A stretch of DNA of 58,181 nucleotides from Chiloscyllium plagiosum (lineage: Eukaryota): assembly GCF_004010195.1 (NCBI RefSeq), contig NC_057758.1:7809510-7867690 (forward strand), in the 5' to 3' direction. The position numbers were made by a program, and so were the translations under genes. Positions 24,075 through 53,473 of this stretch are shown here, in pieces. Numbering within the stretch: position 1 is the first letter of the stretch; every line of letters begins with the position of its first letter. The notes beneath the pieces are model-generated. The model saw nothing but the letters and a program-made list of their open reading frames with translations, had not been told where the DNA came from and searched no databases.

Positions 24075-24241
24075 ATCCAATCATTCCATGTGTTTTAGAG
24101 AGAAGTCACTGCAGTAAAGTACCATGTGATGAGACCATTTCAGTTCGGACCGATGGGGCATGCCCACACTTCCAAGTGTGCTGCATGCCTTTCTTGCCAG
24201 CGATGAAGAAAAGGGAACATGCACCTCTGGAAAGCATTTGA
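24075..24241 (+). CDS. beta-defensin-like peptide, terminal (mature-peptide) coding exon, copy A
   Basis: Polypyrimidine acceptor tttttctgtctcccag|AT (phase 1). Open frame (D)PIIPCVLERSHCSKVPCDETISVRTDGACPHFQVCCMPFLPAMKKREHAPLESI*. Cys spacing C-x6-C-x4-C-x11-C-x5-CC with GxC before Cys4. AATAAA at 24338-24343. Signal-peptide exon not securely located. Confidence 0.75.
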
Positions 24242-24337
24242 TTTTCCGAATGGAGAGATCTGTCATCTCAGCAATTCCATCTTCATTTCATGGTCTCAAT
24301 ACAATGAGCTCTGGCGCACTGCTTTCTCAGACACATG

Positions 24338-24343
24338 AATAAA
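24338..24343 (+). terminator. polyadenylation signal of defensin-like gene A
   Basis: AATAAA about 100 nt after the stop codon at 24241. Confidence 0.5.
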
Positions 24344-24489
24344 ATTAACTGACACCAACAAACATAAATTGTCCAAGCTTTATTTCCTATTCAGATCATA
24401 CTTATAACATAATGACAGGGACGAGGGCAACGGTCACAGAATAGGCAGGATACCGGGGTGACATTGTCTTTGTTGCTGTGAAAGCCTTT

Positions 24490-24820
24490 GATTAGATTAG
24501 ATCACAGTGTGGAAACAGGCCCTTCGGCCGAACAAGTCCACACCGACCCACCGAAGCGCAACCCACCCATACCCCTACATTTACCCTATACCGAACACTA
24601 CGGGCAATTTAGCATGGCCAATTCACCTGACCTGCAAATCTTTGGACTGTGGGAGGAAACCGGAGCACCCGGAGGAAACCCACACAGACACGGGGAGAAC
24701 GTGCAAACTCCACACAGTCAGTCGCCTGAGGCGGGAATTGAACCCGGGTCTCTGGCGCTGTGAGGCAACAGTGCTAACCACTGTGCCACCGTGCCGCCCA
24801 CTGTGCCACCGTGCCGCCCA
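24490..24820 (-). mobile_element. HE1-type SINE with a duplicated 5' end
   Basis: Near-consensus copy; ccactgtgccaccgtgccgcc occurs twice in tandem at 24778-24819. Confidence 0.93.
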
Positions 24821-25936
24821 CCTTGGTTACATGGCAGTTGGAAGACCATTTTTAGACCGCATCACCACAGTGTAGGAATGGTATGGAGGCTCTGGGGAGG
24901 CTCCAAAAGGATACGAGATGATTAACTGCAAGAAGTGAATGCAAAACCTTGGATGGTTTCTGCTAGACTATGATAGTAGAAGGGACGAAGTGTCAAAAGC
25001 ACAAAAAATGATGCAAGGATAGATTATCCAGGTGGAGCTTTTTTATCCCCAGGGCGGGTATGTCAAATATAGGTAGACATATATTTAAGGTGAAGGAAAT
25101 ACATGTGGAATCATATGAGGAATGTTTTTTACAGCGAGGGATGTAGGCGTCGGGACCACGCTGCCAGGAGAGGTGGCTGAACTGGATATCGAAGCAAAGC
25201 TTAAAATTAGATGTGCAAATGAACGAATAGAGTATGAGGGATACAAGCAACGTGCAGGCAGATAGAATTAGTTTAATATATTAGCATCGTGGGCAGAACC
25301 AGCCGTTCCTGTACAGTAAAGTTCTATATTCTGTGGATCAGTTTAGCAACAAAGGAAAGCAAGACCTGCTCGGGTTGTTTTGCTTTGAAGCAGAAAAGAT
25401 AGAGGGATGAACTGTTTGTGGTGTGCACTATTACCAAGGCTACGGACAGAGTGATCATTGAGCAGTTGTTCCGTTATATCAACAGGTCAATTACCAGGTG
25501 GTATAATTTGAAATTGAAAGGAAAATGGTTGAAGGGGAGTTAAGGAGAAAACTTTTCACAGGGAGGATTGTGGGGTTTGGAATTATTTGGCTGGGAGGTT
25601 ACTTAAGCTGGGAAACATCACAATCCTTGAAAAGCTCTTGCATGAGCCACATGACGTGTCCAAACATTAAAGTGTATGCGCTAAGTTTTTGAATGTGTCA
25701 AGTATATATTTTGAGTAACATTTCACGGTGTGGACTCAATGAGCTGAAGTGCCTCACCTACTTTTTCTGATTCTATGATTCTCTGCTCGAACACACACAA
25801 ACCACCGCCCGCAGATAAAGTCACTGAATAATTATACACCCTTCCTGTGGGGCAGGGATGGGAGGTGTGATGTTTCACTCAGAGGGGAGTGACGCATCAC
25901 CCTGTTGCATCACACGGACAATGATCGTTTACTCAC

Positions 25937-26230
25937 GTCTGACCGCATAGACTGGAATGGAAATTGGGAGCCAGAGTTGCACGAAGCTCGAGACAAAATT
26001 GATCTTGCATGCAGACCAACCACCAAGAAACCATCAGTTGTATCAATTCTATCTACATTGTGCAAACAGGGAGGGAAGTTTCCACCAGGGTTGGCTTGCA
26101 ACAGGAGATGAAGTAAACTTTGAATGGGCAGTACACACAGTAAGAATGTTCATAGTCCATCCGCAGGTATCGGTAAGAGAGGCGGGCAGACGTTCTCCGT
26201 GGAGTCATTCAAACACAGAAAATATGACCA
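25937..26230 (-). pseudogene. degenerate Ig C1-set exon relic
   Basis: ILTVCTA..F....PWWK / GNFPPCLHNVD..DTTDGFLVV; ends at a |gtgagt donor. Confidence 0.35.
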
Positions 26231-26799
26231 AATGTAGACCACACAGTCTTTCGAGTCTGCTGAACCCCAAATCAATAACACAACATACAACAGAAATTAC
26301 TGGAAAACTCGGCATGTCTGTCAGCAGCTGTGGAGAAATGTCAGAGTTAAGCTTTCTGGTTGACTGCCCCTTCCTCAGAACTGGATACTTGAACCATAGT
26401 TCTCAGGAAGGATCTCTCGACGCAAAACTTCAATCATGATTTCTATCCACTGAAGCTAATAAATCTGTTGAGATTTTCGAGATTTTTGTCTTCGAATCTT
26501 TAGGATGCGTAGTTCTTTCAGTTTTTATTCAGTTTGATCATGGTTGTTCCAATTTCATCCTCAACTGTGCATTCCTACATATTCCTGGATCAGCTTTCAC
26601 CGCGTTGCTCATCAAGAATCTCTCTGAATACGCCGTCAAAAGCTTAAAGTGTTTGCTTTTTCAAGAAGGAATTCCAAAGTATTGCAAGCCTCTAAGAGGA
26701 AAGAAATTCTTCTTTGTCTCCGTTTTAATTAGTTACTTTTAAATAACGAAGCTTTTTTTTTATTATGCACTATTTATACAAAAAGTGGATAACAATGTA

Positions 26800-27555
26800 A
26801 AAGGGATAATTATGGGTTGACAAACGACTCGAAATTTGATGTTGTTGATGATAGTGAGGAGGATGGTCTCAGGCTACATCCGGATATTGATCAGCTGCTA
26901 AATTGGACAGGTGAAATTTAATTCTGATAAGTGTGATAAGCATTGTGTGACGTCTAAAAAAGGAAGGATATGCCAATGTATCGTCAGTCCATAGGACGTA
27001 CTGAGAATAAATGGGACCCAATGTATAAGTTAATGAATCCTTGAAGATATTAGCACATTTAAAAAGGATGGTGAAGAAGACATACGGAATGCTAGCCATC
27101 ATTATCCTTTGGAGGATATGAGCAACAAAGTCTCATTACAATTCTTTAAAACATTGGTTCATCCACATATAGAATAATATGTGCAATACTTGTCACTGCA
27201 CTATCAGAAGGGCATGAGTGCAGAGGAGAAGGTATAAAGGAGATTGACTGTGATTTTGCCTGTGATTAAAACTCGCAGTCATGATGAGTGATTGGACAGG
27301 TTGTGTTTGCTTTCCTCTGGGCAGGAGATGTTGAGGGGGACTCTGATTGATGTCGAGAAAATCTTGAGTTATAAACAAAACAGGTTGTGAGTATCTTTCC
27401 ACATTGCAGGCATGTCTAAGACCAGAGCGTAATAGTTTCTTCTGCCGAATAATTAGCTGAGAAGCGAATTGAGAATTTTTGTTTCATTCAGAGGACAGCG
27501 GAAATATGGAACATCCTACCTGAGAAGCTGGTTAAGGCAGGTACTCTATTCCATT
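26800..27555 (+). mobile_element. old CR1-type LINE fragment
   Basis: Degenerate RT C-terminal and 3' region similar to the other copies. Confidence 0.6.
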
Positions 27556-27559
27556 CGAT

Positions 27560-27790
27560 GCAAAGGCCGACATTCTATTCGTAGTTTAGTCGCAACCACG
27601 CGTCGTGGGACTGGTGTGACATGTAGGACCAAATCAGGTCAAGAACAAGAACAATGCTATGGGTCTGGGCTTCCATGTAGTGACAAAACAGGCCAATGGT
27701 ACCCAGAGTAATTTGACTTTCGAGTCACATGTAACATTGGACAGGTCAACATGAACCATATTCCTCTTAGCATTATATCACATGTTTGGT
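27560..27790 (-). pseudogene. degenerate Ig C1-set domain relic
   Basis: VPLACFVTTWKPRPIAL ... VVATKLRI. Confidence 0.3.
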
Positions 27791-27899
27791 CTGAGTAGGT
27801 TCGTGATGTCATTTCCTGTGGTGATATCACTTCTGTGGTAATGTAATTTGCTGCTGCGAAGTCGCTTCCTGTTCTCTGTCTCGAGGGGTGATAGCTGGG

Positions 27900-28375
27900 G
27901 TCTAACTCAATGTGTTTTTACTCAGACCCCTTGACATCATGGTAGTCCTCAAACACACCAACACTCTCAAACAGCAGCTAACGAACTTGAAAGATCCTAT
28001 ACAGACAACAAGCAAAACGAATGTAATTTACAAAATACCTTGCAAGGACTGTTACAAACACTACATTGAACAGACAAAAAATAGCGACCAGGATACATGA
28101 ACTTCACCTAGCCGAAAAACGACAGGAACCTCTCTCACTAGTATCTTTACATACGGATGAGGAAGGCACCATTTCGATTGCGACAACACATCTATCCTCG
28201 GACAATCCAATTAACAACACGCACGAGAATTCCTGGAAGCATGATAATCCAACTTAAAGTCTATCAACAAACATTCTATCAATAGTGCTTCGCCTGAGGC
28301 CCACTGAAGATTTTACCTAGTGGGGGACAAAACATCTGGAAATGAAACTTCCAGCTCAGCGAGCAAACCTGCATG
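27900..28375 (+). mobile_element. Penelope-like element relic (GIY-YIG endonuclease region)
   Basis: TNTLKQQLTNLKDPI...NVIYKIPCKDCYKHYIEQT / ATRIHE / REFLEA*. Confidence 0.85.
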
Positions 28376-28644
28376 AAACTCCATTTCCCACTTCTCAGCC
28401 CAGCTCTGCAGCTTATCAATGTCCCTCTGGAAAATGCAACATCTTTCTGCATGGCCCACTTCTCCACCAACTTTAGTGTCATCTGCAAATTTACTAATCC
28501 ATGTATCTGGAACATAACTGACTCCAGTTCCAAACGATACATTTCTCCATTAAGCATCTTTCGATTTACCTGACAAAACTTTCACTTACACTAAAGCTGC
28601 AAAACGAATTACGGCATGAATTAAAATGGACTGATATTCATTTG

Positions 28645-29150
28645 CGTGTGTGTGGGCGTGTGTGAGTGTGCATGAGTCTCTGTGGGGTGTGATTGTCTGT
28701 GCATGTGCATGTGCGTGTGCGTGTGTGTGTGTGCGTTGTGTCTGTGTGCATGTGGGTGTGTTTGGAAGCGCGTGTGAGTATGTGTGTGCGTGTGTGTCTA
28801 TGTATGAGTGTGGATGTGTGTGGGTGCCTGTGTGAGTATGTGTGTGTGGGTGTGTGAGTGTGTGTTTATGAGTGTTAGTATGTGTGGGTGTGTGTGTGCG
28901 TGTGTGTGAGTGAAGATGCGTGTGTAGGTGAGTACGGGTGTGTGCTTGTGGGAGTGTGGGTGTTGAAGTGTGAGTTTGTGTATGTATGTGTGGTTGGGTG
29001 CTGATAAGGTCGGGTGTGTGAGGGTGTGAGTTTGTTTGTGTGGATGTGTGTCTGTGTGTGTCTTGTATGCGTGTGCGTGTGTGTTGTTTGTGGGTGTGCA
29101 TCTGTGAATGTGGTCGTTTGTGTGTGTCTCTGTGTCTGCCTGTGTGCTCA
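28645..29150. repeat. TG-rich low-complexity tract (CA-rich counterpart at 44862-45340)
   Basis: Imperfect (TG)n. Confidence 0.9.
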
Positions 29151-29254
29151 TATCCAATTCTTCCCCACCTTTGAGCATTCAGGATGCATCAAAAAGACAC
29201 CGAGAATGATGGAGAGATCGATTGACAGGCACTGTCCTCAATATTTATTTACAG

Positions 29255-29890
29255 TATGACAGAGGGCAGGGTAATAAGGCTGTCGAAGTCTTGCGTGCCA
29301 ATTTAAGCTATGCAACAAGGAAAGGGTTGGGAGCTGGGACTGCCGTCTCTCCGTTCCCACCATTTCCAATGCAATTAGATTAGATTAGATTACAGTGTGG
29401 AAACAGGCCCTTCGGCCCAACAAGTCCACACTGACCCGCCGAAGCGCAACCCACCCAGACCCATTCCCCCGCATTTACCCCTTCACCTAACACTACGGAC
29501 AATTTACCATGGTCAATTCACCTAACCTGCACATTTTTGGATTGTGGGAGGAAACCGGAGCACCCGGAGGAAACCTACGCAGACACGGCGAGAACGTGCA
29601 AACTCCACACAGAGAGTCGCCTGAGACGGGAATTGAACCCGGGTCTCTGGCGCTGTGAGGCAGCAGTGCTAACCACTGCGCCACCGTGCCGCCCACAATT
29701 GCGCTGTCACACATGGAAGATGGAGAGCGTCTGGGTCATCAGCAGATCCAACATCACCAACTCCTTTGCCCGGCAACAATGGGTACCCCAGTAGCACTTG
29801 GCTCTGATCTTCAGTTCGTCCCCTCGGCAAGTCTGCTCTCGGCACAGGCCTCTCAACTTATCACATGTGGCTCCAGGCTCTGCGAACGAA
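29255..29890 (+). pseudogene. Ig C1-set exon relic (left arm of the inverted duplication), interrupted by an HE1 SINE
   Basis: tttatttacag| acceptor; TWKM...SNITNSFA / NNGYPSSTWL across frames once the SINE is removed. Confidence 0.35.
29377..29695 (-). mobile_element. HE1-type SINE, young, with CAATT target-site duplication
   Basis: caatt at 29372-29376 and 29696-29700; empty site visible in the paralogous arm at 44339-44343. Confidence 0.95.
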
Positions 29891-30082
29891 ACCGTCGAGT
29901 ATTAGCCGGATTCCTCTCAGCCCACTCGCCCACCACGTCAGGATTACTGATGGTGAAGCCTGAACAGCCGGGAGTGGAAGCGAATAGGGTCAGGGGGCTA
30001 GCGCAGTTGAGATTTTCTTCTGTGCAAACAAACATCCATGCAAAGATTTTGACTCTGCATCTTTATTTCTCGCTTTGCACAG

Positions 30083-30350
30083 AGTGTGGATGCGAGGCGT
30101 TTCGAGTCTACAACCACTCCCGTAAAACAAACCTCTAAACCTGCTCCACAGAGCGTCTGACAAACCTGTGTCTCCAACTTGATATGTTTTCCAGCTTCAA
30201 CGCGAATGTCGAATTCAATGGTTGCTATCTCTTCACACGGGCTGCGCCTGAAAGGTAGAATCTGCCAGCATATGTGGGTGGCTACTGGAGTGTCACAGAG
30301 CCTTGTGCTGATTCGCAAGAGAAAGAGATTATATTTTGTAGTTTTAATGT
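30083..30350 (+). pseudogene. Ig C1-set exon relic (left arm)
   Basis: ctttgcacag| acceptor; VYN / NLICF / SFNANV / IQWLL / GGYWSV / IFCS across frames. Confidence 0.4.
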
Positions 30351-30569
30351 AATCAAGGGGTGTGGGTTGCAAATGGGAAATTGACGTTGAGTGAGAGAAT
30401 CACCTTTGAGCATACTGAGGTATGGAAGCGGCCAACTCCTGCTCTGAGGTCATATGATTCTGGTTCTCATTGTGGGTGGGTGTTTGTGTGTGTGTGTGTG
30501 TGTGTTTTTGCGCACGTGTGTGTGTATGTGTTTCTGTGGCTGTGCGTCTATTTGTTTGTTTCCCTGGTC

Positions 30570-30975
30570 CACAAAGCCACAGTGCCAAGCAAAGAGGAGG
30601 CACTGTCAGAGGGTAGACTGACAGGGAATGGAGGGCACCTTGGCCCAGCGGGGCTGTCTGAAATCAGCTTAAGCCAGCAGTATCCTTTCAATCCGAGAGC
30701 CAGCCTTTCGACAACCTCCCACCCACATGCCCCCACGTGGTAGCGAATCACCTTTGTAGAAGAAATGCTTCCGTGGCAGAAGGCCGGCCCCAGACAGAGA
30801 CAGGGCCAGGAGTTCAAGGACGAGGAGGAGGAATACTCCCTTCATCTTCTGGTCAGCTCCTCGGAGCCTGGAGACGGCAGAGCGAATCTGACACGATTTA
30901 CCAGCCCAGTTCCACAGGAATGGTCTCGTATTGACGTCTTCTGAATCGAACAGCACGACAACAAGTTGCCTGGAG
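30570..30975 (+). pseudogene. Ig C1-set domain relic (left arm)
   Basis: VPSKEEAL ... LPWQK ... TSPVPQEWSRIDVF*IEQH, matching the EW..G.V(Y/F).C...H region of C1 domains. Confidence 0.45.
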
Positions 30976-31679
30976 TGCCCTCCTTCCTTGGAAGAAACAC
31001 AGCAGGCTGAATCCGTGATCGCTTTAAATCATTAACATGTGTACTCACCCTTCGTTACAACTTGGGCTTGATCCACCTTATTGCATCGAATTTCAGAGAC
31101 TCTGTGCAAATGTCACCATATTCTTCACTGAATCAAACTGCTAATCATTTTCCCCAATCCCGCAGTGCGTCAGAGAAAAGACCAGTCAAAGGTTTCTGTT
31201 CAGAATCTCTATGGTGGAGAAGCAGAATACCGAATCGCGTTGATTGAGTGGATGTTGGGAAGAGTTTTTCATTGTTAGGAGAGAAGTGGATCCGAGGACG
31301 AAGCCTTAGAGTAAAGGGAGGACCTTTTATAACGAAGATAATGAGAATTGTTTTCAGCCAGAGATTTGTGAATTTCAGAAATTCATTACCATCGACGGTT
31401 GTGAAGGTATAATTTTATACAGATATAATTCGGTTCGGAGTATCAAGGGGGAGGGAGTACGGGGAGAAAGGTGGAGAATGTGGTAGATAAACCTATCGGC
31501 AACGAGTGCATGGTGGACGGGCTTGATGGGCTGAATGGCCTCACTTCTCCTCCTATGTTTTTTGGCCATTCTGCCGATCGAGTTCACACCGACACAGTAA
31601 GCAGCATTCTGCCCTGTATTTTTTGCAGAACTAATCTACCCAGCCTGCACATCCTTGTCACATTGCGGAGAAACTTCCA

Positions 31680-31860
31680 ATAGCCAGTCCACCTGAGTCT
31701 GCACATCATTGAACTGTGGGAGGAAACAGCAGCACCCGGAGGAAACCAATGCTGACACAGGGAGAATGTGCAGATTCCACACTGACAGTCACCAAAGGGT
31801 GGAATCGATCCTGTGTGCCTGGCGCTGCGAGGCAGTATTGCGAACCACTGAGTGAAATTG
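31680..31860 (-). mobile_element. old diverged HE1-like SINE (also in the right arm at ~42320-42500, +)
   Basis: Degenerate gggaggaaac...cacccggaggaaacc body and tRNA-like head. Confidence 0.7.
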
Positions 31861-34152
31861 CAACACGCATTCCTGGTAGACTGAGATCCAGAGAATATCT
31901 CTCACGACAGGAGCTGAAGTAGGCTGTTCCGCACATCACATCTGCTGCGCCATTTAACGGGACCACAGCTGATCTGACAAACCTCTCCTGCGCCTTCCCT
32001 GTCTTCCCCCATAAACTCACAATTCCCTCACTGTTTAAGAGTCGCACTCTCTTTCTCAGTCTTCAATATATTGAATAACCCAGCATCATCAGCACTCTGT
32101 GGTGAAGAACTAAATAGTTTCACCCATCTCCCAGAGCACAGTCCCTCCAATATTGTGGAAGTCCCATAGCACTGGCCCTCTGATAGTAATTATATCCTCA
32201 GTGCTGACCATCCGACAGTGCCTATTCCCTCATCACTGACCCTCCGATAGTCCCCACTGCCTCAGCGTTGAACTTCTAACAGTGCCGAGTCCCTCAGCAC
32301 TGAGATTCCGAGCGTGCGGTGCTCCCTCAACACTGAAACTCAAGCAGTGAGGAATCCCATCGACAATGATGCTCTAACAATGCCACACTACCTCAGCATC
32401 GACCTTCTGATAGTGGGACACTGCCTCTGCACTGACTGTCTGACAATGCAGAGCTCCATCAGCACTTCCCCTGACATTATGGGAACCCAGCAACAATGAC
32501 GCACTGAAAGCACACACTGTCTCAGCACTGACCCTCCAACAGTGCCCAGTCCCCCAGCACTGATTCGTTGACAGTACAGGACTCTCTCAGCACTGACCTG
32601 TCCTTCCCCAGTATTGACCCTCCAATGGTGCGGTTCTCCCTCAGTACTGAATCTCTGACGTTGCGGAGACCCTTCAGCAGTAACCCTCCAATAGTGCAGA
32701 GTTCCCTCAGCACTGCCTCTTCGGCATTGTGGAAATCCCTCAGCACTGACACTCTGGCAGAGACATTTCCTCAANNNNNNNNNNNNNNNNNNNNNNNNNN
32801 NNNNNNNNNNNNNNNNNNNNNNNNNNNNNNNNNNNNNNNNNNNNNNNNNNNNNNNNNNNNNNNNNNNNNNNNNNNNNNNNNNNNNNNNNNNNNNNNNNNN
32901 NNNNNNNNNNNNNNNNNNNNNNNNNNNNNNNNNNNNNNNNNNNNNNNNNNNNNNNNNNNNNNNNNNNNNNNNNNNNNNNNNNNNNNNNNNNNNNNNNNNN
33001 NNNNNNNNNNNNNNNNNNNNNNNNNNNNNNNNNNNNNNNNNNNNNNNNNNNNNNNNNNNNNNNNNNNNNNNNNNNNNNNNNNNNNNNNNNNNNNNNNNNN
33101 NNNNNNNNNNNNNNNNNNNNNNNNNNNNNNNNNNNNNNNNNNNNNNNNNNNNNNNNNNNNNNNNNNNNNNNNNNNNNNNNNNNNNNNNNNNNNNNNNNNN
33201 NNNNNNNNNNNNNNNNNNNNNNNNNNNNNNNNNNNNNNNNNNNNNNNNNNNNNNNNNNNNNNNNNNNNNNNNNNATTCTTTCCTATTCATGTATTCGTCA
33301 AAATGCCGATTAAATGTTCTTAATGTGACAGCGTCAACCACTTCCGTTGGCAGCTCATTCTATATACGCATCACTGTCTGTGTGGAAAATGTGCCCTCAG
33401 GTTTCCTTTCATTCTTTCCCCTCCATTATTAACTGGTGCTCTCTTGTCCTCGATTCCTTTACCAAGGGGGAAAAAAGCATTTCCTCTATCCTTACCTCTC
33501 ATGATCTTATTCACTTCTATAAGGACCCCCTTCATTTTTTTTACTCTCTAAAGAAAAACATCACAGTTTGTCGAACATGGCCTGATAACTTAAATCATTG
33601 ATTTCAGGCAATATCCTTGCAAATTTCATCTTTACATTTTACATTTTGGTAACATCTTTTCTATAACAAGGTGACCAAAACTGAACACAATATTTCAAGT
33701 TCAGCTTCACCAACGCCTTGTAAAATTGCAATTAAACTTGCAAAATTCTGCACTCAATGCCGGGACCGAGGAAGGCCAGAATGCCTGGCTGATTTAATCA
33801 GTTATTCAAGGCTGATCTACATGCAGTTATTTTGAGCAAAGGTGTCAACAATTGTAATTTTCATTCATGAAAACAATAGTTTTTTTAATTAAACCATGAA
33901 AAAGACATTGTTCGAATGATTCATTTTACTTTAAGAAACTTATTTTTTGTTCATAAATTACAAAGTTTTTGCTTAAGTTACAAATCGGTGTTGAGAATCA
34001 ATTTTCCCAAAGCAATTGTGCATCCAAACCAGATGACAATGCTAACAAACTCTCACACACATACAGACAAAGCTTTTCTGCAAGCGCGTGATTTTCCCTC
34101 TCGCTCTCTCACGCAGGCAGACGCACGCAAGGCGTTTCAGCAAGCCACAGCT

Positions 34153-34204
34153 TTCTCTCTCTCTCTCTCTCTCTCCCTGTCACTCTCTCCCTCTGTCTTT
34201 CTCC

Positions 34205-34255
<51 letters not shown>
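34153..34255. repeat. (CT)n(CA)n compound microsatellite
   Basis: Visible directly in the sequence. Confidence 0.95.
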
Positions 34256-34256
<1 letters not shown>

Positions 34257-36011
34257 GAGCCTTGCCGAAACAGACCCTTTTGTTAATTCCAAAAAGTACA
34301 GTATAGGCCTTGCCTTAAACATTCAACAGTCTAGTAACAGTTTAACACGATGACAATTCTCTACTATTTTGCATTTCACCTTCAACCACCAACCTGCTGG
34401 CTTCCAATTTCATCAAAAATCACTAATACTAACAATAAAACAATCCTTAGCTGTTCCCGTCCGTGCAGTCCCCTTTATTTTTTTTAAATTTTCTTCAAGA
34501 TAGGACGGTATCCACAGAAACTTAAAAACACTACCTGTTTTTTTTCTCAATCTCTTTATTATTTACTTAATCACCCCCCTGCACAGTTTTCTTGAACAAC
34601 TTCTGTGTCTTCTCAAACTTGAATTAACATCCGCCTTTCAAAAGTCGACATTGTCTGTCACAATGGTTCCCGACATTACACTTAACCTGTCACAGAATAC
34701 TAACATTATCTGTTATGGGAGCTATGTAATATGATGCCAGATTACAACCCTAAGTCAACTAATTAACTGCGACAGTAACTTCCATACTAACAGCAGCAGG
34801 ATCCCTGTTTTATCCATTGCTGTCTGTACAATTGGAACAACTGAGCTGTACCCCGATCTGACCTGGAGAGCGCAGTGGAGCAGAAGGAAGCACGATCGTT
34901 CAGTGAGTTGCTGGGGAGGGGATGCTGGGAGAGAAGGTTCCCTCTGACACCAATGCCCCAGTGCCTTCCCAAACCCTTCGTTTCTATTCATTCACGGGAG
35001 GCTGTGGCTCTGTTGGCTGGGTCAGCATTTACTGCCCATTCCACCCTGCCGTGAACGTCTGCAGTCCATCTGCTGGAAGGTCGACCAACAATGTTCCTCA
35101 CGGAGAGGGACCTAGGATTCTGACCCAGCCACACCGAAGGAACGTCCGAAATATTTTCACTTCGGTTTGTTGAGGGACTCAGAAGGGGACCTGAAAGTGA
35201 GGGTGTTGTGTTCCCACACGGTGAGTCTTTCGAAATAGAAGTGGCCATGGGTTAGGAAGGTGCTATAACAGGGTGAGATTCTGCCGTGCATCTTGTCCTT
35301 GTTACACACTGCTGTTACTGAGGGTCGGTTGGAGGGGGAGCGATGGGGGGTTGTGGTGCCAATGCAGACAGGACGGTGCTGCTCTGTCCCTGGATAGTTT
35401 CGACTTTCCTTCATGTGTTAGAATAACAGCTACCCGGGACAAGTGGGAAGTCGTAGCGTTCTGTCGGTTTCTCCCGTTCCTTCATTCCTGTAAAGTCGAG
35501 GAGAAAATACACAATGCTATGCAGTCGGCCTTACGACACCAGTCCGGCAAACGCTGCAATCAGTTTGGTAAACTCCAATGCCAGGTAAGGAGACCAAAAC
35601 TGCACTCAGCACTGCAGATGCAGTCTGACCTATCCAATTGCATCAGATCCTCCCAGCTCCTGGACACGAGTCCTCTCGATCTGATGGCCGAGTGCACCGT
35701 TGCAGGACCATCATGAGCAGCAGTATCTCAGAATGGTGACTGAGGCCCAAACATCTTCAGCTGCTTCAGAGATGAACTGCTTTCCATCAGAATGTCAGAA
35801 GAGGGGTATGTTCACCGATGAAATTCAGCACTATTCGCCACTCCTCAGACTCTGCAGAAGTCCGTGTGCTGAAGTTGCAAACCTGGACAATAACGAGGCT
35901 GGTCTGAAAACTAAAAGAGCAGGTGAAACTGCGGACGCTGGAGATCAAATTTGACGGTGTGGTCCTAGAAATGCAGAGCATGTCAGGCAGTTTCCGAGGA
36001 GCAGGAGAATC

Positions 36012-36039
36012 GACGTTTCGGGCAAAAGCCCTTCATCAG
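36012..36039 (-). ncRNA. minimal hammerhead ribozyme core in a Penelope terminus (copy 1)
   Basis: CUGAUGA-AGGGC-UUUU-GCCC-GAAAC-GUC on the minus strand. Confidence 0.65.
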
Positions 36040-36175
36040 GGCCAAAGGGACTGAGAGTGAAATAAGAGTCGCGTGACGTTGGGGCAAGGTAGCTAGGAAG
36101 GTGATAGGAAGATGAAGGTGGGGTAAAGTGAAAATTTGGAGAGGAGAGTTAAGCAGATAGAGGAGCAGGAGAATC

Positions 36176-36203
36176 GACGTTTCGGGCAAAAGCCCTTCAT
36201 CAG
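36176..36203 (-). ncRNA. minimal hammerhead ribozyme core (copy 2)
   Basis: Identical to copy 1, within a 164-bp tandem duplication. Confidence 0.65.
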
Positions 36204-37489
36204 GGCCAAAGGGACTGAGAGTGAAATAAGAGTCGCGTGACGTTGGGGCAAGGTAGCTAGGAAGGTGATAGGAAGATGAAGGTGGGGTAAAGTGAAAATT
36301 TGGAGAGGAGAGTTAAGCAGATAAATAGAAGAGACGATGATTAGACAGGACAGGCCTTGGATTTGGTATAAGTTGAGGTGGCAGGGAGAAGAAATGCGGA
36401 AACTTGTGAAATTCCCATTGATTCGGTGGGGTTGAGGGACTCACGGCAGAAGATGAAACGTTCTTCCTCCAAGCCTCTGGTGGTGAGGGTTTAGCGGTGG
36501 AGAAGTCTCAGGACCTATATGGTCTCAATGGGGTGAGAAGTGTGCGGCTTACAGAAAAACCCATGTCGGATGTGGAAGCTTCCTTTGCGACTGGATGCCA
36601 ATTGCGGAGAGCTTCAGGGACCACCTCCCAGATGTGCGCACGGACCAATCCCACAGCCCCGTGGCCAAACACTTCAACTCCACCTCCCACTCTGCCAAGG
36701 ACATGCAGATCATTGGCTTACTCCATTGCCACTCCATAACCATGCAACGCCCAGAGGAAGAACACCTTTTCTTCACTTCAGAAAACTCCAATCCCACGGT
36801 ATCAATGTGGATTTCACCAGTTTCTCCAATTCCCCTTACGCCATCCTCTCCCAGATCCAACCTTCCAACTCGTCAACAGACATTTTGGTCTGTGTGGTGT
36901 CTTTCTCATCCATCTGCACCACCCTACTCACCGAACTATCACCATTGTCCCACCTCCACCTAACTATCGCCTTCCAAGCTAATTTTCCCCAGCTCCACCG
37001 TCCTATTTATCTCTCAGCCTCTTTACCCCGCACACCCACATTCCTCATGAACGAAACGTCGATTCTCCTGCTCATGGGATGCTGCTTGATCTTGTGTGCT
37101 TTTCCACATCCCACTCTTGGCCTAAAACCTGCCAATTAATATCTGCATCACGCAAATGCCTGATGATCAATATCTCCAGTCTAAAAATATGTCTATGCTT
37201 TTGTGCTGAGGACACACAATCTATATCCATATTTCTGTCTCTGTTACTATTTATGATCTCTATGTCTCTCTATCAGTATCCCTGTCTCTGTCTCTGGGTC
37301 TCTGCATTTTCTCACTCTCTTTCTCTCTCTCTCCATCCCTATCTCTTTTCGGTTATTCTTTTATAATCTTTGTTTCCCTCTATCATTGTCTCTGTCTCTG
37401 CTTATCTATATGTCTGTCTCTCTCTACCTATGTCTCCCACTCTCTCTGTCTCTCGCTGTTTATTTCTCACTCTCTATCTCTCTGCCTTT

Positions 37490-37745
37490 AAGACACTTCG
37501 TGAACGAAAATAATTTTGAGGCAAATCCTGGTGTGCTGTGGCAGCATTTTTGTTACGTGGTCCTGTGAGGCACCATGGGAGATTTCGTGAACTCCCTGGA
37601 TCAAAACAAGCTGGTCCGTTCTCCCCCAAATTTTGCTCCCAATTGTTTGGCCTCAGTCGGAGAACTGTGCACAGCTCTGATTTCCAAATTGAAATGATCG
37701 CAAGTTGTGGTCATACAGGAAAAGTAAGGTCCCACACTGAAACTT
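37490..37745 (+). pseudogene. degenerate Ig C1-set domain relic
   Basis: QILVCCGSIFVTWS ... TALISKLK ... HTGKV across frames. Confidence 0.35.
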
Positions 37746-38435
37746 GATTGTTAGGTCTGAGGTGTCAGATTGCTTTATTTCTTCTGTCATTGAGGCTAAT
37801 CAATGGACGTATTCAGAAGAGGTTCGAAGTGTAAAATTAACACGAAGGACATGGTCATTTCAAAAATAGGCTAACAGCTTTGTTCAACAGCACAAGGATT
37901 GTTGGGACCGTGCAATTTCAAAGTTTAGCAAGAACTGTTCATCCTTTTAGAGGCCACTATAACAGACGGATTATCACATCTCAGGTAACATTCAATCCAT
38001 CTCTACACTGAATCTTCTATTTCAACTGATTGAAAAGTTGATTTCCATTTCGCATAACGGTGAAAATCCACTTAATGTATCCGTGCTGATACCCTGAAGA
38101 CAAGCTGCGCAATTTTGCTCTCAATGTCCCTCACTTACACCACATATAATGTGATGTGCAGAATTCTATTCTCAATATTTCTCAGTTGCATCAAACATAA
38201 AGAACTATGCATAATTCTGCTCTCGATATCCGTCCATGACACCACACATTAAGCACAGTGCACAGTTATGTTTTTACTATTGGTTCAAAAACACTTTAAG
38301 CACACTAGATAGTACTTCGTTCTGTATCCCTCCGTTAAACTACACTGCACAGTGCGGTTCTCTGTTTCACTTGGTTGCATCCTACTTGTACAACTGATTG
38401 TTGATAATAATGAAGTCGCGTTTTCTGTTTCCCAG

Positions 38436-38554
38436 GTTTCTTCAGCGATTGTATGAGTTTGGGTGCAACTTGTAAAGAAATGCCCTGTGACAACAGTGAG
38501 ACTACTCTCAATGGGATATGTGCCGGGAACAAGTTATGCTGTTGGAAAGACTGA
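38436..38554 (+). CDS. beta-defensin-like peptide, terminal (mature-peptide) coding exon, copy B
   Basis: Acceptor ttttctgtttcccag|GT (phase 1). Open frame (G)FFSDCMSLGATCKEMPCDNSETTLNGICAGNKLCCWKD*. Cys spacing C-x6-C-x4-C-x10-C-x5-CC with GxC motif. Too short for the supplied ORF track. Shares PCD and GxC with copy A. Confidence 0.8.
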
Positions 38555-38964
38555 GAAAGGGAAAACCGAATGAATAACAGAGCGAGGCATGTCTGAGTTT
38601 CAACGCGTGCTGTCTGCCCATTCTGAACTTCGGGTACAGCTCAGTTATGTAGATATGATAATTTCTGACCCACCGTTTTCTGAAACAAGGGAATTAAACT
38701 AATGCATTGATCACTGGGTATTTTCTGTCTCTGATTACTCACTGGGATCAGGATGTGCTCATACTGACCAGGAGTTAGGGGACGTGAGTGGGGTGTCATT
38801 GGGGCAGGAATGCCAGAAAATGGAGGAAGCACATTGATATTTTGTAGCTTCTATCTAGTCACAATGCCAGTGTCATCGTGACGTGGCAAAATGCCCATTG
38901 CGCGGCCTGTTCAGCTCCAACTGGAAGCACAGGCTGGAGATAATCATTACGAGGTCTGGATGTA

Positions 38965-41900
38965 ACCAGTCCTATCAGAGATCAGTGTTTAGGCATCTAC
39001 GCACTGCTGGACAGTCAGTGCTGAGGCAGTCAGGACTTGCAGAGGGACAGTGCTGACGGAGCGGACTCTATCAGAGTGTCAGTGCTGAGGTAGCACAGCG
39101 CTGTCAAAAGGTCTTTGCTGAGGGATCACCGCACTGCCAGAAGGTAAGTGCTGAGGAAGAGGGCTCTATTAATGGGTCAGCGCAGACGGAGATGGTTCTG
39201 TCAGACATTCAGTGTTGAGGAAGACATCTCCCTTCGAGGCGCAGTGCTGGGGAAGAAGCCTCTGTCGGATGGTCAGTGCTGCGCATTACAGCACTGTCGG
39301 AGGAGCAGTGCTGAGGACGTGGGCTCAGTTAGAATGTCAGTGGTGAGGCAGAGGGTGCTGTTGGAGGGTCAGTGCTTATACGCAGTATATTGTTGGAAGG
39401 TTTGTTCTACAGAAGCACTGTACTGTCGGAGGGTTAGTGCTTTGTCAGTACTGCACTGTCGGCTGGTCAGTGCTGAGGAAGTGGGCATTGATGGAGGGAC
39501 ACTGTTGAGGGAGCAGCCAGTATTGGTTGGTCAGCGCTGTGAGTGGTTCAGCGCTGTGGTAATGTCACACTGCTGGAGGATCAACGCTGAGACTGTGGGC
39601 ACTGTTGGATGGCGAGTGCTGGTGGAGCCGGCACAGTTGGAGGGTCAGCACTGATGGAGCTCCACACTGCTGAGGGCCAGTGCTGACAGAGTGCCACACA
39701 GTCGGAGAGTCCGTGCGGAAGGAATGGAGACTGTCAGAACTTCAGTGCTGAGGGAGTGCAGCACTGTCGGAGGGACAGTGCTGGGTGAGTGCCGCATATT
39801 GAGAGGATCAGTGCTCAGGGTGCTTCGCACTGACGAAGTGTCGGTACTGAGGGACTGATTCAATGTTGGAGACTCAGTGTTAAAGGAGTGTTACACTGTC
39901 AGAGACACAATGCTGCGGGATCTCTGCACTGTCGGAGGGTCAGTGCAGAGGAAATGCCACTCTGTCGGAGGGTAAGTGCTGAAAGCGCAGGAACATTCCA
40001 AAGGTCAGTGTGGAGGAAGCCCGCACTGTCAGAGGGTCAGTGCGGAGGGAACCAGTAATTTCCGAGTGTCGCACTGTTGGATGGTCAGAGCTGAAGCGAA
40101 TATCCCACAGTCGTAAGCACAGTACTAAAGGAGCGCCGCTTTGTCAGATGTTCAGGGTTGTGGGAGTGCAGCATTGTCAGAGAGTCCATGCTGTGCGAGT
40201 GCCACACGGTCTACTACTCAGTTATGAGTGTTCTCTGCACTGTCGGAGAAACAGTGTTCAGGGACTAGGCACTTTCGGAGGGTTCATGCTGAGGGAGTGT
40301 GGCTCTCTCAAAAGGGACAGCCCGAAGGGGATGCCACACTGTCTACCGTCTATGGTGAGGGAGATCCGCAAGGTCAAAAGGTCAGTGCTGAGTGAGCACC
40401 GTACTGTTGAAGGGTCAGTGCTCAGGAGGTGTGGCACTGTTAGATGGTCAGCCTGATGGAATGCCACTCTGATGGAGGGTAAGTGTTCAAGGAATGCCGC
40501 ACTGTTGGAAAATCAGTGGTGAGGGAGTGCCGCATAGTTTGACGATCAGTGCTGAGGGCGATCCACACTGTCAGAGAGTCAGCGTTGACAGAGTCAGCGT
40601 TGTCGGAGGGTGACCACTGACGGATTGTCCTACAGTTGGAGGTTCAGTGCTGATTGAGCTCCACATTATTGGAGGGCCAGTGCTGAGGAGCGTCAGCACT
40701 CATAGAGGGTCAGTGCTGATGGCGTGCTACACTGCCAAAATGTGAGTGCTGAAGGAGCGCTGCACTGATGGTAGATTAGTGCAGAGAGAGTGCTGCACTG
40801 TCAGAGGGTCGTTGCTGAAGGAGTGCCGCACTGTTCGAGGGTCAGGACTGACAGAGTGACACATTGTCGAAGACTCAGCGGTGAGCGAGCCACACGCTAT
40901 CGGAGTTTCAGATTTGAGGGATCTCTGAACTATTGGAGCATACTTGCTGTCCGAGTTCCATACTGTCCGGGTGTCAGGGCTGGGTGAGTTTGGCACTGTC
41001 GCAAGGTCAGTGCTGAAGGACTGCTGCAGTGTTGGAGGCTTCGTGCTGTGGAAATGTCACACTGTTGATGTCGCAATGCTGAGAGAGCTCTTCACTTTCA
41101 GACTGCCAGTGCTGAGGGACAGCGGCACTGTCATAGGGTCAGTGCTGAGGAAGCACCGAATTATTGATGGGTCAGTGCAGGGCGAGCTCCACACTGTCGG
41201 AGCGTCAATGCTGAGGGAGTGCAGCACTGTTGTATGGTCAGTGTTGCGTGAGTTGGCACTCTTAAGCACTCAGTGGTGTGGTTGTGGTCTCTTTCGGACA
41301 TTCCGTGCAGAGAAAGTGGGCATTTTCAATGGGTCAGTCCTGAGGGACTGTCGCAGTCTCGGAGGTCAGTGCTGAGGGGGGTCCCACTGTTGGATGGTCA
41401 GTGTTGAGGAAATGTCTCTGCCAGAGTGTCAGTGCTGAGGGATTTCCACAATGCCGAAGAGGCAGTGCTGAGGGGACTCTGCACTATTGGAGGGTTTCTG
41501 CTGAAGGGTCTCCGCAACGTCAGAGATTCAGTACAGAGGGAGCACCGCACCATTGGAGGGTCAGTACTGGGGAAGGACAGGTCAGTGCTGAGAGAGTGCT
41601 GTACTTTCAGCGAATCAGTGCATGGGGACTGGGCACTGTTGGAGGGTCAGTGCTGAGAGTGTGTGCTATCAGTGCGTCATTGTTGCTGGGTTCCCATAAT
41701 GTAAGGGGAAGTGCTGATGGAGCTCTGCATTGTCAGACAGCCAGTGCAGAGGCAGGGTCCCACTATCAGAAGGTCGATGCTAAGGTAGTGTGGCATTGTT
41801 AGAGCATCATTGTTGATGAAATTCCTCACTCCTTGAGGTTCAGTGTCGAGGGAGCACCGCACGGTCGGAATCTCAGTGCTGAGGAACTCGGCACTGCCAG

Positions 41901-42050
41901 AAGTTCAACGCTGAGGCAGTGGGCACTATCGGAGGGTCACTGATGAGGGAATACGCACTGTCGGATGGTCAGCACTGAGGATGTAAGTACTATCAGAGGG
42001 TCAGTACTGTGGGACCTCCACAATATTGGAGGGTCTGTTCTCTGGGAGGT
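38965..42050 (+). repeat. diverged ~32-bp minisatellite (gcactgtcggagggtcagtgctgagggagtgc-like)
   Basis: Recurrent cagtgctgaggg...gcactgt units over ~3 kb; inverted copy at 32125-32774. Confidence 0.92.
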
Positions 42051-43084
42051 GGATGAAACTATTTAGTTCTTCACCACAGAGTGCTGATGATGCTGGGTTA
42101 TTCAATATCCTGAAGACTGAGAAAGAGAGTGGGACTCTTAAACAGTGAGGGAATTGTGGGTTTATGGGGGAAGACAGGGAAGGCGCAGGAGAGGTTTGTC
42201 AGATCAGCTGTGGTCCCATTAAATGGTGCAGCAGATGTGATGTGCTGAACCGCCTACTTCAGCTCCTGTCGTGAGAGATATTCTCTGGATCTCAGTCTAC
42301 CAGGAATGCGTGTTGCAATTTCACTCAGTGGTTAGCACTACTGCCTCGCAGCGCCAGGCACACAGTTTCGATTCCACCCTTTGGTGACTGTCAGTGTGGA
42401 ATCTGCACATTCTCCCTGTGTCAGCATTGGTTTCCTCCGGGTGCCGCTGTTTCCTCCCACAGTTCAATGATGTGCAGGCTCAGGTGGACTGGCTATCGGA
42501 AGTTTCTCCGCAATGTGACAGGGATGTGCAGGCTGGGTAGATTAGCGCTGCAAAAAATACAGGGCAGAATGCTGCTTACTGTGTCGGTGTGAACTCGATC
42601 GGCAGAATGGCCAAAAGACATAGGAGGAGAAGTGAGGCCATTCAGCCCATCAAGTCGTTCCACCATGCACTCGTTGCCGATAGGTTTATCTACCACATTC
42701 TCCACCTTTCTCCCCGTAATCCTTGTCCACCTTGATACTCGGAACCGAATTATAACTGTATAAAATATACTAAATGATCTGACCTTCACAAACGTCGATG
42801 GCAATGAATTCCTGAAATTCACAAATCTCTGGCTGAAAACAATTCTCATTATCTTCGTTATAAAAGGTCCCATCTTTACTCTACGGCTTCGTCCTCGGAT
42901 TCTGTTCTCTCCTAACAATGAAAACCTCTTCCCAACATCCACTCAATCAACGCTATTCNNNNNNNNNNNNNNNNNNNNNNNNNNNNNNNNNNNNNNNNNN
43001 NNNNNNNNNNNNNNNNNNNNNNNNNNNNNNNNNNNNNNNNNNNNNNNNNNNNNNNNNNNNNNNTGTTTCTTCCAAGGAAGGAGG

Positions 43085-43520
43085 GCACTCCAATCAACTT
43101 GTTGTCGTGCTGTTCGATTCAGAACACGTCAATACGTATCAGATTCGCTCTGCCGTCTCCAGGCTCCGAGGAGCTGACCAGAAGATGAAGAGAGTATTCC
43201 TCCTCCTCCTCCTTGAACTCCTGGCCCTGTCTCTGTCTGGGGCCGGCCTTTTGCCACGGAAGAATTTCTTCTACAAAGGTGAGTCACTACCGCGTGGGGG
43301 CATGTGGGTGGGAGGTTGTAGAAAGGCTGGCTCTCGGATTGAAAGGTCACTGCTGGCTTAAGCTGATTTCACACAGCCCCGCTGGGCCAAGGCGTCCTCC
43401 ATTCCCTGTCAGTCCACCCTCTGACAGTGCCTCCTCTTTGCTTGGCACTGTGGCTTTGTGGACCAGGGAAACAAACAAATAGACGCACAGCCAGAGAAAC
43501 ACATACACACACACACGTGC

Positions 43521-43563
<43 letters not shown>

Positions 43564-44460
43564 GAGAACCAGAATCATATGACCTAAGAGCAGGAGTTGG
43601 CCGCTTCCGTACCTCAGTATGCTGAAAGGTGATCCTCTCACGCAACGTCGATTTCCCATTTGCAACCCACACCCCTTGATTACTTTAAAACTACAAAATA
43701 TAATCTCTTTCTCTTGCGAATCAGCACAAGGCTCTGTGACACTCCAGTAGCCACCCACATATGCTGCCAGATTCTACCTTTCAGGCGCAACCCGTGTGAA
43801 GAGATAGAAAGCATTGAATTCGACATTCGCGTTGAAGCTGGAAAACATATCAAGTTGGAAACATAGGTTTGTGAGACGCTCTGTGGAGCAGGTTGAGAGG
43901 TTTGTTTTATGGGAGTGGTTGTAGACTCGAAATGCCTCGCATCCACACTCTGTGCGAAGCTAGAAATAAAGATGCAGAGTCAAAACCTTTTCATGGGTGT
44001 TTGTTTGCACAGACGAAAGTCTCAACTGCGCTTGCCCCCTGACCCTATTCGCTTCCACTCCCGGCTGTTCAGGTTTCACCATCGGTAATCCTGACGTGGT
44101 GCGCGTGAGGGCTGAGAGGAATCCGGGCTAATCCTCCACCTCGCTGGTTTCGTTCGCAGAGACTGGAGCCACATGTGATAAGTTGAGAGGCCTGTGCCGA
44201 GAGCAGACCTGCCGAGGGGACGAACTGAAGATCAGAGCCAAGTGCTACCGGGGTACCCATTGTTGCCGGGCGAAGGAGTTGGTGATGTTGGATCTGCTGA
44301 TGACCCAGACGCTCTCCATCTTCCATGTGTGACAGCGCAATTGCATTGGAAATGGTGGGAACGGAGAGATGGCAGTCCCAGCTCCCAACCCTTTCCTTGT
44401 TACACAGCTTAAATTGGCACGCACGACTTCGACAGCCTTATTACCCTGCCCTCTGTCATA
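43085..44460 (-). pseudogene. three Ig C1-set exon relics (right arm; paralogues of 29255-30975)
   Basis: Reverse complement of the left-arm relics; lacks the SINE and has a 33-bp deletion removing the VPQEWS motif. Confidence 0.4.
43504..43561. repeat. (CA)n microsatellite (paralogue (TG)n at ~30475-30530)
   Basis: Visible directly; length differs between the duplication arms. Confidence 0.95.
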
Positions 44461-45334
44461 CTGTCAATAAATATTGAGGACAGTGCCTGTCAATCGATCT
44501 CTCCTTCATTCTCGGTGTCTTTTTGAGGCATCCTGAATGCTCAGAGGTGGGGANNNNNNNNNNNNNNNNNNNNNNNNNNNNNNNNNNNNNNNNNNNNNNN
44601 NNNNNNNNNNNNNNNNNNNNNNNNNNNNNNNNNNNNNNNNNNNNNNNNNNNNNNNNNNNNNNNNNNNNNNNNNNNNNNNNNNNNNNNNNNNNNNNNNNNN
44701 NNNNNNNNNNNNNNNNNNNNNNNNNNNNNNNNNNNNNNNNNNNNNNNNNNNNNNNNNNNNNNNNNNNNNNNNNNNNNNNNNNNNNNNNNNNNNNNNNNNN
44801 NNNNNNNNNNNNNNNNNNNNNNNNNNNNNNNNNNNNNNNNNNNNNNNNNNNNNNNNNNNNNACAGACACAAACACCAAAACGCGCATGTATACATACACA
44901 AACATACACGTCTGCACACTCACGCACATCCCCTACACGCAAACAAACAAACTCACACCTCCACACCCAATGACGCATACCCACTCACTCACCTGCCCAC
45001 AACCACGCAACCAAACTCACACCACACAGACGTACAACACCAAACACCCATACAACACCGACACACATACCCACACACACCTTCTCTAACTGACACCCAT
45101 CCACCCACGCACGCACACACTCAGCTCCCGCAACACCCCCATGCATACAACACACAGCCATCCTCACACACCTACTAAACCCTCACCCACTCACACTCAC
45201 ACATACAACCCCACTAACGCAATCAGACACCCCCACACACCCACAGGAATCCACACAAACCGACACACATCCTTCCACACACACCCCACATGCCCACAGC
45301 CATTCTCTCTCACACACACCACAACTATACACAC

Positions 45335-52212: not shown

Positions 52213-53067
52213 CGTAGGCTAACGGATTGTTTTGGGAAGGGATACTGATCAGAGATTTGGTGTGGACTCGGTGGCTCTAATTGTTTGTTTCCACACTTTA
52301 GGCTGTCACTGAAAACAGAGTTAATGCTTCAGAGACACATTCAAAAAAGATCTGCTCCCACACCACGGACGTTCAGAGCAACAATGTGAAACACATGCAT
52401 GATGAATTGCACAGACGCTCAGAATTTCCTTGGTGATCTCTTCACAAGACCAAGGGGGGAAGAATTGCAGAGGTCGGTCAGGTCATGATCCTAGGGGATT
52501 ACGCAGCAGAAATATACTATGCAGTGTTTTAAGAGATTGTGATTAAATTGATTTCCACTGGCGCCACATGGCTGCCCAGATGGGAGATTCCAGATCTGTA
52601 AATAATCTGCAGCATTTGGTAGAATGACTGTACCCAATAACACAACTGTATCCTCAGTGTGGCGGTAATATTCAATCTTCGCCATGACTGTGTGGTTTTC
52701 ATTTCTAACAATGCCAATGTAGATAGATGTGTGCGAGGCAGGAAGATTAGTAAGAAGGAAGGTAAGGACATTATTTCCCTTTCTGCTGGTTCTCTTGCCA
52801 CGAACTGCAGGTAGAGTCTGGCTTGCAAACCTCGATAAATTCGACGAGTCATTGGAGAACCCGAGACTTCCACGGTGAAAGCCGTTCAAATCCGAAAGCC
52901 AGTATGGAATCGAGTGCTGAATCCTCTCCAACAGTTTATTTCTGTTTGTTTTACCTTGGGGAGGTCAAGACCAACATATCAGGATGACACAATTGGTAAA
53001 GCAAGATATGAAAGACTCTGCCTGGGTTTTTGAGACCTCCCCTCTCTCCGATCAAATGAACGAAAGA

Positions 53068-53272
53068 GCTGAAAATGTGTTGCTGGAAAAGCGCAGCAGG
53101 TCAGGCAGCATCCAGGGAACAGGAGAATCGACGTTTCGGGCATAAGCCCTTCTTCAGGCTTATGCCCGAAACGTCGATTCTCCTGTTCCCTGGATGCTGC
53201 CTGACCTGCTGCGCTTTTCCAGCAACACATTTTCAGCTCTGATCTCCAGCATCTGCAGACCTCACTTTCTCC
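53068..53272. mobile_element. young Penelope-derived insertion forming a perfect inverted repeat, with 16-bp flanking duplication
   Basis: 84-bp arms at 53065-53148 and 53157-53240, 8-nt loop; tcaaatgaacgaaaga at 53052-53067 and 53273-53288. Confidence 0.9.
53130..53157 (-). ncRNA. minimal hammerhead ribozyme core
   Basis: CUGAAGA-AGGGC-UUAU-GCCC-GAAAC-GUC on the minus strand. Confidence 0.6.
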
Positions 53273-53473
53273 TCAAATGAACGAAAGACGAAGGCTTGAA
53301 CAACGGACATTGCAACGAGTTTTATTGATACGAGTTACAAAGCAGTAAGTCAGGGTCATTGGATCCACACAATGGAACACAGTCGATCTACAGAAGTAAC
53401 AATTTGCATGAGTGGGTGCCTCAGACTGGTCTCACTTCAGATTTATTTACTGTACATCTATTTTCTCTTGCAG

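Follow-up and report, generated by a model that had tools for sequence, protein, structure and literature searches.

A second exon of a beta-defensin gene in the shark Chiloscyllium plagiosum is probably the remnant of a 5'-deleted copy in a tandem cluster

The window analysed here, a stretch of 58,181 nucleotides at positions 7809510–7867690 of the 10 Mb scaffold C49 (3.56-Gb assembly, 101,977 contigs), contains at positions 38,436–38,554 of the forward strand a genuine exon 2, called D3, which belongs to a shark beta-defensin gene. This exon is probably an orphan, exon 2 of a pseudogene that has lost its 5' part. We also think it likely that this copy does nothing, being a stranded exon that has not yet been eroded. 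The shark expansion to which it belongs outweighs the single copy in importance.

The exon consists of two nucleotides completing a phase-1 codon, 38 sense codons and a TGA stop; the two nucleotides ahead of the sense codons indicate a phase-1 intron. An earlier note, made from the sequence alone, had described a strong splice acceptor at this place, and the AG at 38,434–38,435 indeed lies behind a pyrimidine tract (38,414–38,435, forward strand), both being kept in the paralogues. The same note had reported a stop-free exon of 39 codons. The quoted peptide is present but is read from 38,438, since the frame starting at 38,436 contains a stop, and the count has to be amended to the composition given above. 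The six cysteines, the G-x-C motif (at Cys4) and the 5 acidic and 3 basic residues were all found as described, giving a net charge of −2 and a pI of 4.6. The cysteine spacing of 6-4-10-5-0, regarded in the note as the vertebrate beta-defensin signature, agrees with the published motif C-X(6-7)-C-X(3-7)-C-X(8-14)-C-X(4-7)-CC, by which lizard beta-defensins are defined in the Figure 4 legend of PMC12278569. The exon has a canonical acceptor and an open frame, with no stop, frameshift or cysteine loss, so that "intact" is a fair description of the exon, but not of the gene, whose exon 1 is not in the window. An ATTAAA at 38,693–38,698 (forward strand), 138 nt past the stop, is a possible poly(A) signal.

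The strict six-cysteine pattern occurred five times in the window. When the window was simulated 100 times with a Markov model, the mean was 0.01 and the maximum 1. The five exons (D1–D5) start at 24,075 (+), 29,879 (−), 38,436 (+), 44,160 (+) and 53,576 (−), and the acceptor position is always 14 nt before Cys1, occupied by AG in four exons and by CG in D5. A chance arrangement of cysteine codons in non-coding DNA would suit the lack of any sequence match to D3 in Pfam, the PDB and the protein collection. The five occurrences, the common acceptor geometry and the predicted fold described below leave this reading a negligible probability, and it is refuted by paralogous two-exon genes, as 29 related places were found in the assembly with signal exons among them.

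The model of D3, built from the five-exon alignment (pLDDT 87.7), is predicted to form a short helix (residues 5–8) and three strands (11–14, 21–24 and 32–37), as in beta-defensins. In Foldseek, ranks 1–13 were all beta-defensins, the best being human beta-defensin 2 (1fd3; probability 0.98, TM 0.68, E 0.13), and no match reached an E of 0.001 or better. A wide structure search (VIA) aligned human beta-defensin 2 with D3 over 36 residues (Z 4.5, rmsd 2.2), and a platypus defensin-like peptide and anemone peptides came within 1 Z of the top match. The structure prediction suggested in the earlier note thus returned a fold like that of human beta-defensin 2, albeit with a Z under 5. The search with beta-defensin profiles, also suggested there, failed: D3 had no Pfam family at E up to 1, and the gathering cut-offs of PF00711 and PF13841 were not reached. 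The sister exons D4 and D5 matched one or other of these two families at 11.9–17.8 bits, below the cut-offs of 21 and 22.2. No PDB sequence matched D3 at E up to 10. It might be argued that D3 is a working member of a non-defence family with the beta-defensin fold (ovodefensin-like, reproductive or toxin-like), in view of the missing Pfam match, the proximity of the platypus and anemone peptides and a charge of only +1 in the close paralogues. We regard this as very improbable, given the unbroken run of beta-defensins in Foldseek and the sub-threshold Pfam matches of the two sister exons; moreover, a working copy would still require an exon 1.

The supposition that D3 is unannotated held up, as two word-based searches covering proteins of 25–81 and 82–2000 residues found no relative of D3 among 5.8 billion proteins. 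When the five exons were combined into a profile, it matched 4 proteins among 1.84 billion, namely one shark beta-defensin, a six-cysteine protein (P0004) and two repeat-rich proteins which were judged spurious. With an 11-row profile P0004 was the sole match, and it is itself a member of that profile. This protein, encoded on a Logan contig of 3.8 kb, has 120 residues, a signal-like start, the same six-cysteine spacing as D3 and a long basic tail. In the Atlas, beta-defensin clusters were retrieved at 0.82 and 0.76, values below 0.9 which make them leads. One shark member is already known by name: the Chiloscyllium punctatum protein GCC16467.1 (UniRef100_A0A401REA7) is called "Beta-defensin" in UniRef and hypothetical in GenBank. 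It is near D4 (75% identity to exon 2) and far from D3, to which it is identical at just 6 of 24 aligned positions. Intron read-through seems to account for its N-terminus, which has no signal peptide.

Searched against the assembly at E up to 1, D3 matched 30 places: itself, 15 at 81–95% identity (one of them partial) and 14 at 41–49%. For 18 of these 29 other places, up to 9.9 kb of upstream DNA was fetched. Ten of the 18 loci have in common a signal exon of 32 codons, located 2.8–3.8 kb upstream and followed by a phase-1 GT donor; in two of the ten it contains a stop. In the 81–95% group, 7 of the 9 fetched loci possess this exon 1; one of the two others has a 4.3-kb run of N and the other, L010, is an orphan. 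The exon 1 of the subfamily matched 22 places in the assembly. Both exons are open and bounded by GT/AG sites, in the sequence read, at six loci (L004, L005, L009, L012, L013 and L017), L009 carrying a seventh cysteine. An in-frame ATG just before the acceptor of some paralogues was discarded as a start, as it gives no proper signal peptide; it does not exist in the open frame of D3. We propose that in the intact paralogues exon 1, which encodes a signal peptide and a short pro-piece, and exon 2 are joined by splicing in phase 1. The 71-residue precursor would be secreted and trimmed to a peptide with the three-disulfide beta-defensin fold. An R-x-x-R in the pro-piece is a possible convertase site. 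The peptides, near neutral to mildly cationic, would act in host defence, which is their likely role from what is known of the family. With so low a net charge (+1 to +2) they may kill poorly by direct action on membranes, and signalling may be the weightier part of their role.

No exon 1 of the paralogue type was found in the window by assembly match, BLASTN or six-frame alignment, and no hydrophobic phase-1 exon with a GT or GC donor passed a scan of positions 24,300–38,436. D3 therefore has no signal exon in cis within the window that could be joined to the six-cysteine exon. Two candidates, at 37,047 and 31,535, were rejected because they overlap repeated elements. The 3' part of the intron is retained (37,220–38,433, forward strand) with 75–80% identity to the introns of intact paralogues, and this identity breaks off at 37,219–37,282. 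A query spanning the junction (37,219–37,221) gave 41 rows in the assembly, including the window itself. Three left homologues end and four right homologues begin at 37,220; another right homologue begins 62 nt later, behind a run of N, and the 32 further rows correspond to an interspersed repeat. Among these 41 rows, no place other than the window spans 37,220.

The DNA to the left of the junction has a counterpart at a paralogous locus of C49. The block 34,010–37,219 is homologous to DNA lying 15–19 kb upstream of exon 1 at C49:3.49–3.51 Mb. Positions 34,010–36,922 align with C49:3511165–3507716 (72–77% identity) and positions 37,220–38,717 with C49:3490695–3488900 (80% identity), in the same order and on the same strand at both loci. 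Exon 1 of the paralogous locus (3492372–3492540) sits between these two anchors, which are 17.0 kb apart there versus 0.3 kb in the window. Since the anchors flank the exon 1 of the paralogue, about 16.7 kb, promoter and exon 1 included, is missing at D3; the colinearity rests on two anchors, and coordinates alone delimit the deleted stretch. The idea of an intact gene thus finds no support, given the absence of a paralogue-type exon 1 from the window and a sharp junction of the deletion type at 37,220. We propose that some 17 kb up to position 37,220 were deleted, the promoter and the signal-peptide exon with them. D3 would then be what is left, at the 3' end, of one copy of a repeatedly duplicated three-gene cassette made of D3 forward, D4 forward and D5 reverse. 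It most likely yields no peptide, because a start codon, a signal peptide and a promoter would all be absent in cis.

A different origin of the junction has to be weighed, namely an assembly mis-join or a deletion present in one haplotype. In that case the gene would be whole on other chromosomes and encode a secreted, mildly acidic beta-defensin. The number of contigs in the assembly, the four assembly gaps in the window and the undamaged state of the D3 exon and acceptor would all fit, as would the coincidence of the edge of a CT-rich tract with position 37,220. Exact pieces of the window intron are present in other DNA runs. Among the listed contigs of two such runs none bridges 37,220, and a contig of run X1 (986 nt) follows the window from 36,911 to 37,221 with 8 differences in 311 positions (97% identity) and then departs. 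However, this contig may derive from a sister copy, since the arms of the inverted duplication in this region are 93–97% alike. There is also no gap at 37,220, where the left and right homologies overlap by one base, an overlap so short that a repeat common to both sides would hardly have mediated the join. Furthermore, two of the three nearest sisters of D3 are broken, and the exon shows no excess of conservation in its clade (see below). We consequently hold a mis-join or a haplotype deletion to be unlikely. The X1 contig and the homologues fix the position of the break, across which the joined arrangement may be fixed, polymorphic or the result of misassembly.

All introns of the cluster are in phase 1, so it is conceivable that D3 borrows another signal exon of the same strand, either that of D1, whose exon 1 was not located, or one hidden in the unread 500-N assembly gap at 32,775–33,274, upstream of the block 34,010–37,219. 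The phase and the acceptor position common to all five exons would allow it. Against this, a transcript from D1 would have to skip the D1 exon 2 and its AATAAA and to cross D2, which is on the opposite strand. As the block 34,010–37,219 is upstream DNA in the paralogue, the native exon 1 should have been in the lost stretch and not in the gap. Such borrowing appears distinctly improbable, and a 5'-deleted pseudogene remains our preferred reading.

The earlier note had taken the negative charge as the sign of a special role. Exon 2 was translated for 19 relatives, after exclusion of L016 and L022–L030 as partial or distant. Sixteen of the 19 had a net charge of +1 to +5, one of 0 and two of −1, as compared to −2 for D3, which departs from the usual net-cationic character of functional beta-defensins; the closest intact paralogues have +1. 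In a tree of 20 rows, calculated from the exon and its flanks, D3 grouped with L002, L010 and L011 with a support of 100/99, and the three relatives of non-positive charge all fell in this clade. Two residues are private to D3 within it, the acidic E14 and L33. Over 37 codons the clade shows 8 replacement versus 0 silent changes, a ratio which fits neutrality (p 0.22) and is also compatible with positive selection. Exon divergence in the clade equals flank divergence (p 0.30–0.61). Between D3 and the intact L004, by comparison, differences occur at 6 of 111 exon sites versus 47 of 248 flank sites (p 0.0006), the exon being the better conserved. These numbers are small and suggest that the ancestors were under constraint, of which the D3 clade shows no sign. 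Among the sisters, exon 1 is absent from about 9.6 kb of N-free sequence at L010; at L011 exon 1 contains a stop and Cys1 has been replaced, and L002 lies on a short contig which ends before the upstream region. Judged from these comparisons, the negative charge of D3 is recent. The private E14, the positive charge of 16 of 19 relatives and an exon no better conserved than its flanks lend no support to a special role, and the net −2 would be the product of drift. Anionic mature beta-defensin peptides with a pro-piece are reported for the olive flounder in passages of PMC8231796 and PMC8116387.

Samples amounting to approximately 2% and 6% of two single-cell RNA runs, both from one sample whose tissue is not recorded, contained no read on the D3 exon; run X5 gave 162 reads in the window, all in repeats, and run X6 gave none. 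The earlier note had also placed frameshifted immunoglobulin relics next to D3, and these could not be reproduced. A motif scan of the window turned up neither a set of Ig-like motifs nor a credible RSS, and Pfam found no Ig family in the 266 scanned of 334 N-free, stop-free segments of at least 60 aa. Six-frame read-through of 33,281–38,433 gave no Ig family either, a weak test as no family at all was returned. Of 1319 V-set candidates in the assembly 150 matches were scored, and none of these 150 lies on C49. Heavily decayed Ig pieces could escape these scans. The sole protein relics recognised by Pfam in the window were two reverse-transcriptase pieces at 14,793–15,698. V-set exons were numerous at C9:2.0–4.3 Mb.

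The other four exons of the window differ in their state of preservation. D1 (24,075–24,241, forward strand) is a beta-defensin-type exon 2 with an AG acceptor, a net charge of 0, a Cys3–Cys4 interval of 11 residues and a long tail, followed by an AATAAA. Weak candidates for its exon 1 were seen at 23,297 and 22,181. D2 (29,707–30,845, reverse strand) and D4 (43,185–44,332, forward strand) are intact-looking two-exon genes, each with a hydrophobic 31-codon first exon and a phase-1 GT donor. The signal exon and exon 2 are at 30,845–30,752 and 29,879–29,707 in D2, and at 43,185–43,278 and 44,160–44,332 in D4. Their second exons have net charges of +3 (D2) and +4 (D4) and a 21-residue, partly hydrophobic C-terminal tail past the last cysteine. 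D2 and D4 are better candidates than D3 for peptide assays. Many of the relatives of these two genes in the genome carry stops. D5 (53,458–55,076, reverse strand; signal exon at 55,076) has both reading frames open and is a probable pseudogene because both splice sites are non-canonical: AT is found at the donor position after 54,986, where a paralogue has GT, and CG replaces the acceptor before 53,576.

D4 is an inverted duplicate of D2, one lying on each arm of an inverted duplication which flanks D3 (29,162–44,553; arms at approximately 29,162–32,774 and 41,404–44,553, 93–97% complementary). By the symmetry of this duplication a second D3-like copy could lie inside the N gap. A candidate is the unplaced contig C75666 (the L002 locus), with 92% identity over window positions 38,096–40,047. 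An interspersed repeat at 29,375–29,697 sits directly past the D2 stop; it must be younger than the inverted duplication, since the D4 stop lacks it. A degenerate 33-bp tandem repeat occupies 38,982–41,980, between D3 and D4, and is also seen at 32,128–32,774 and beside several paralogues. A second tandem repeat, with a period of about 51 bp, is located at 56,100–57,340. Tandem arrays may drive cassette duplication, which is speculation. The window also contains a near-perfect hairpin at 53,065–53,240 (84-nt arms, 100% complementary, 8-nt spacer), a 126-nt palindrome at 22,344–22,469 (94%) and an exact 164-bp tandem duplication at 35,996–36,323, either recent or an assembly artefact.

The cluster extends far beyond the window. 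At E up to 0.1, D1, D4 and D5 gave 46, 25 and 32 rows, and the union of all exon matches covers at least 129 places detected: 34 on C49 (0.84–8.87 Mb), two on C8 and the rest on 86 other contigs. Stops are present in many of the rows, and some places on unplaced contigs may be allelic copies of others. With five exons in the window and 34 places on one scaffold, the arrangement is that of a tandem cluster. The order D3 forward, D4 forward and D5 reversed is found again at C49:3.47–3.49 Mb and 3.71–3.74 Mb, and D3 is paired with D4 on five unplaced contigs. The recurrence of these orders indicates that duplication proceeds by whole multi-gene cassettes. We propose that this cluster evolves through duplication and decay. 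On balance, we incline to the view that it represents a hitherto undescribed, scaffold-wide expansion of shark beta-defensins, comprising about a hundred loci that arose as multi-gene cassettes were duplicated again and again, with two-exon genes and entire low-charge subfamilies.

The resemblance to known systems is of several kinds. D3 shares with vertebrate beta-defensins (PF00711, PF13841; 1fd3; mallard AvBD3, 7lzl) the six-cysteine spacing and the G-x-C at Cys4 and, in its predicted structure, the helix and three strands, avian beta-defensin 3 being also among the best matches; its paralogues share the phase-1 signal exon and the clustering of genes. D3 differs from them by falling below Pfam detection, by an identity of about 25%, by its net −2 and by having no exon 1 found. 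The six cysteines are also common to D3 and teleost beta-defensins (sea bass, olive flounder fBDI). The sea bass first coding exons of 55 and 58 bp given in PMC8231796 both correspond to 3n+1, in agreement with the phase 1 of D3. According to the same source, genes of teleosts comprise three exons and are few in number (three in zebrafish, seven in salmon), whereas the shark genes have two coding exons, as in mammals, and over a hundred matching places. A parallel in layout is offered by the lizard Podarcis lilfordi, for which PMC12278569 reports 63 beta-defensins in about 5.5 Mb of chromosome 3. Both clusters are of megabase scale, with recent tandem duplicates and many motifs that lack a complete ORF (in the lizard 24 of 65 are complete). 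The lizard cluster is marked in that account by CTSB and XPO1, whereas in the shark assembly the sole match to the cathepsin-B propeptide (PF08127) is at C9:579039–579244, on another scaffold than C49; both scaffolds could belong to one chromosome. The antimicrobial section of a 2019 review of cartilaginous-fish immunity treats transferrin, squalamine and kenojeninin, with no defensin in that section (PMC6795676), and in the portion of PMC10707392 available the word defensin occurs only in the reference list. No paper on shark beta-defensins was found in the literature searched, which took in few subscription journals, so that this counts for little as a sign that none exists.

If D3 is a remnant, this copy matters little in itself, and serves as a warning that a well-preserved second exon of unusual charge is no guarantee of a working peptide. 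The analysis supplies intact genes on which a test can be made: D2, D4, L004, L005, L009, L012, L013 and L017. If the shark expansion is real, large beta-defensin clusters would not be restricted to amniotes, and D3 would be one decayed unit recording the turnover of the cluster. Either the ancestor of jawed vertebrates had such a cluster and teleosts lost it, or sharks evolved one independently. A large and quickly turning-over shark cluster with mammal-like two-exon genes would bear on the time of origin of beta-defensin clusters.
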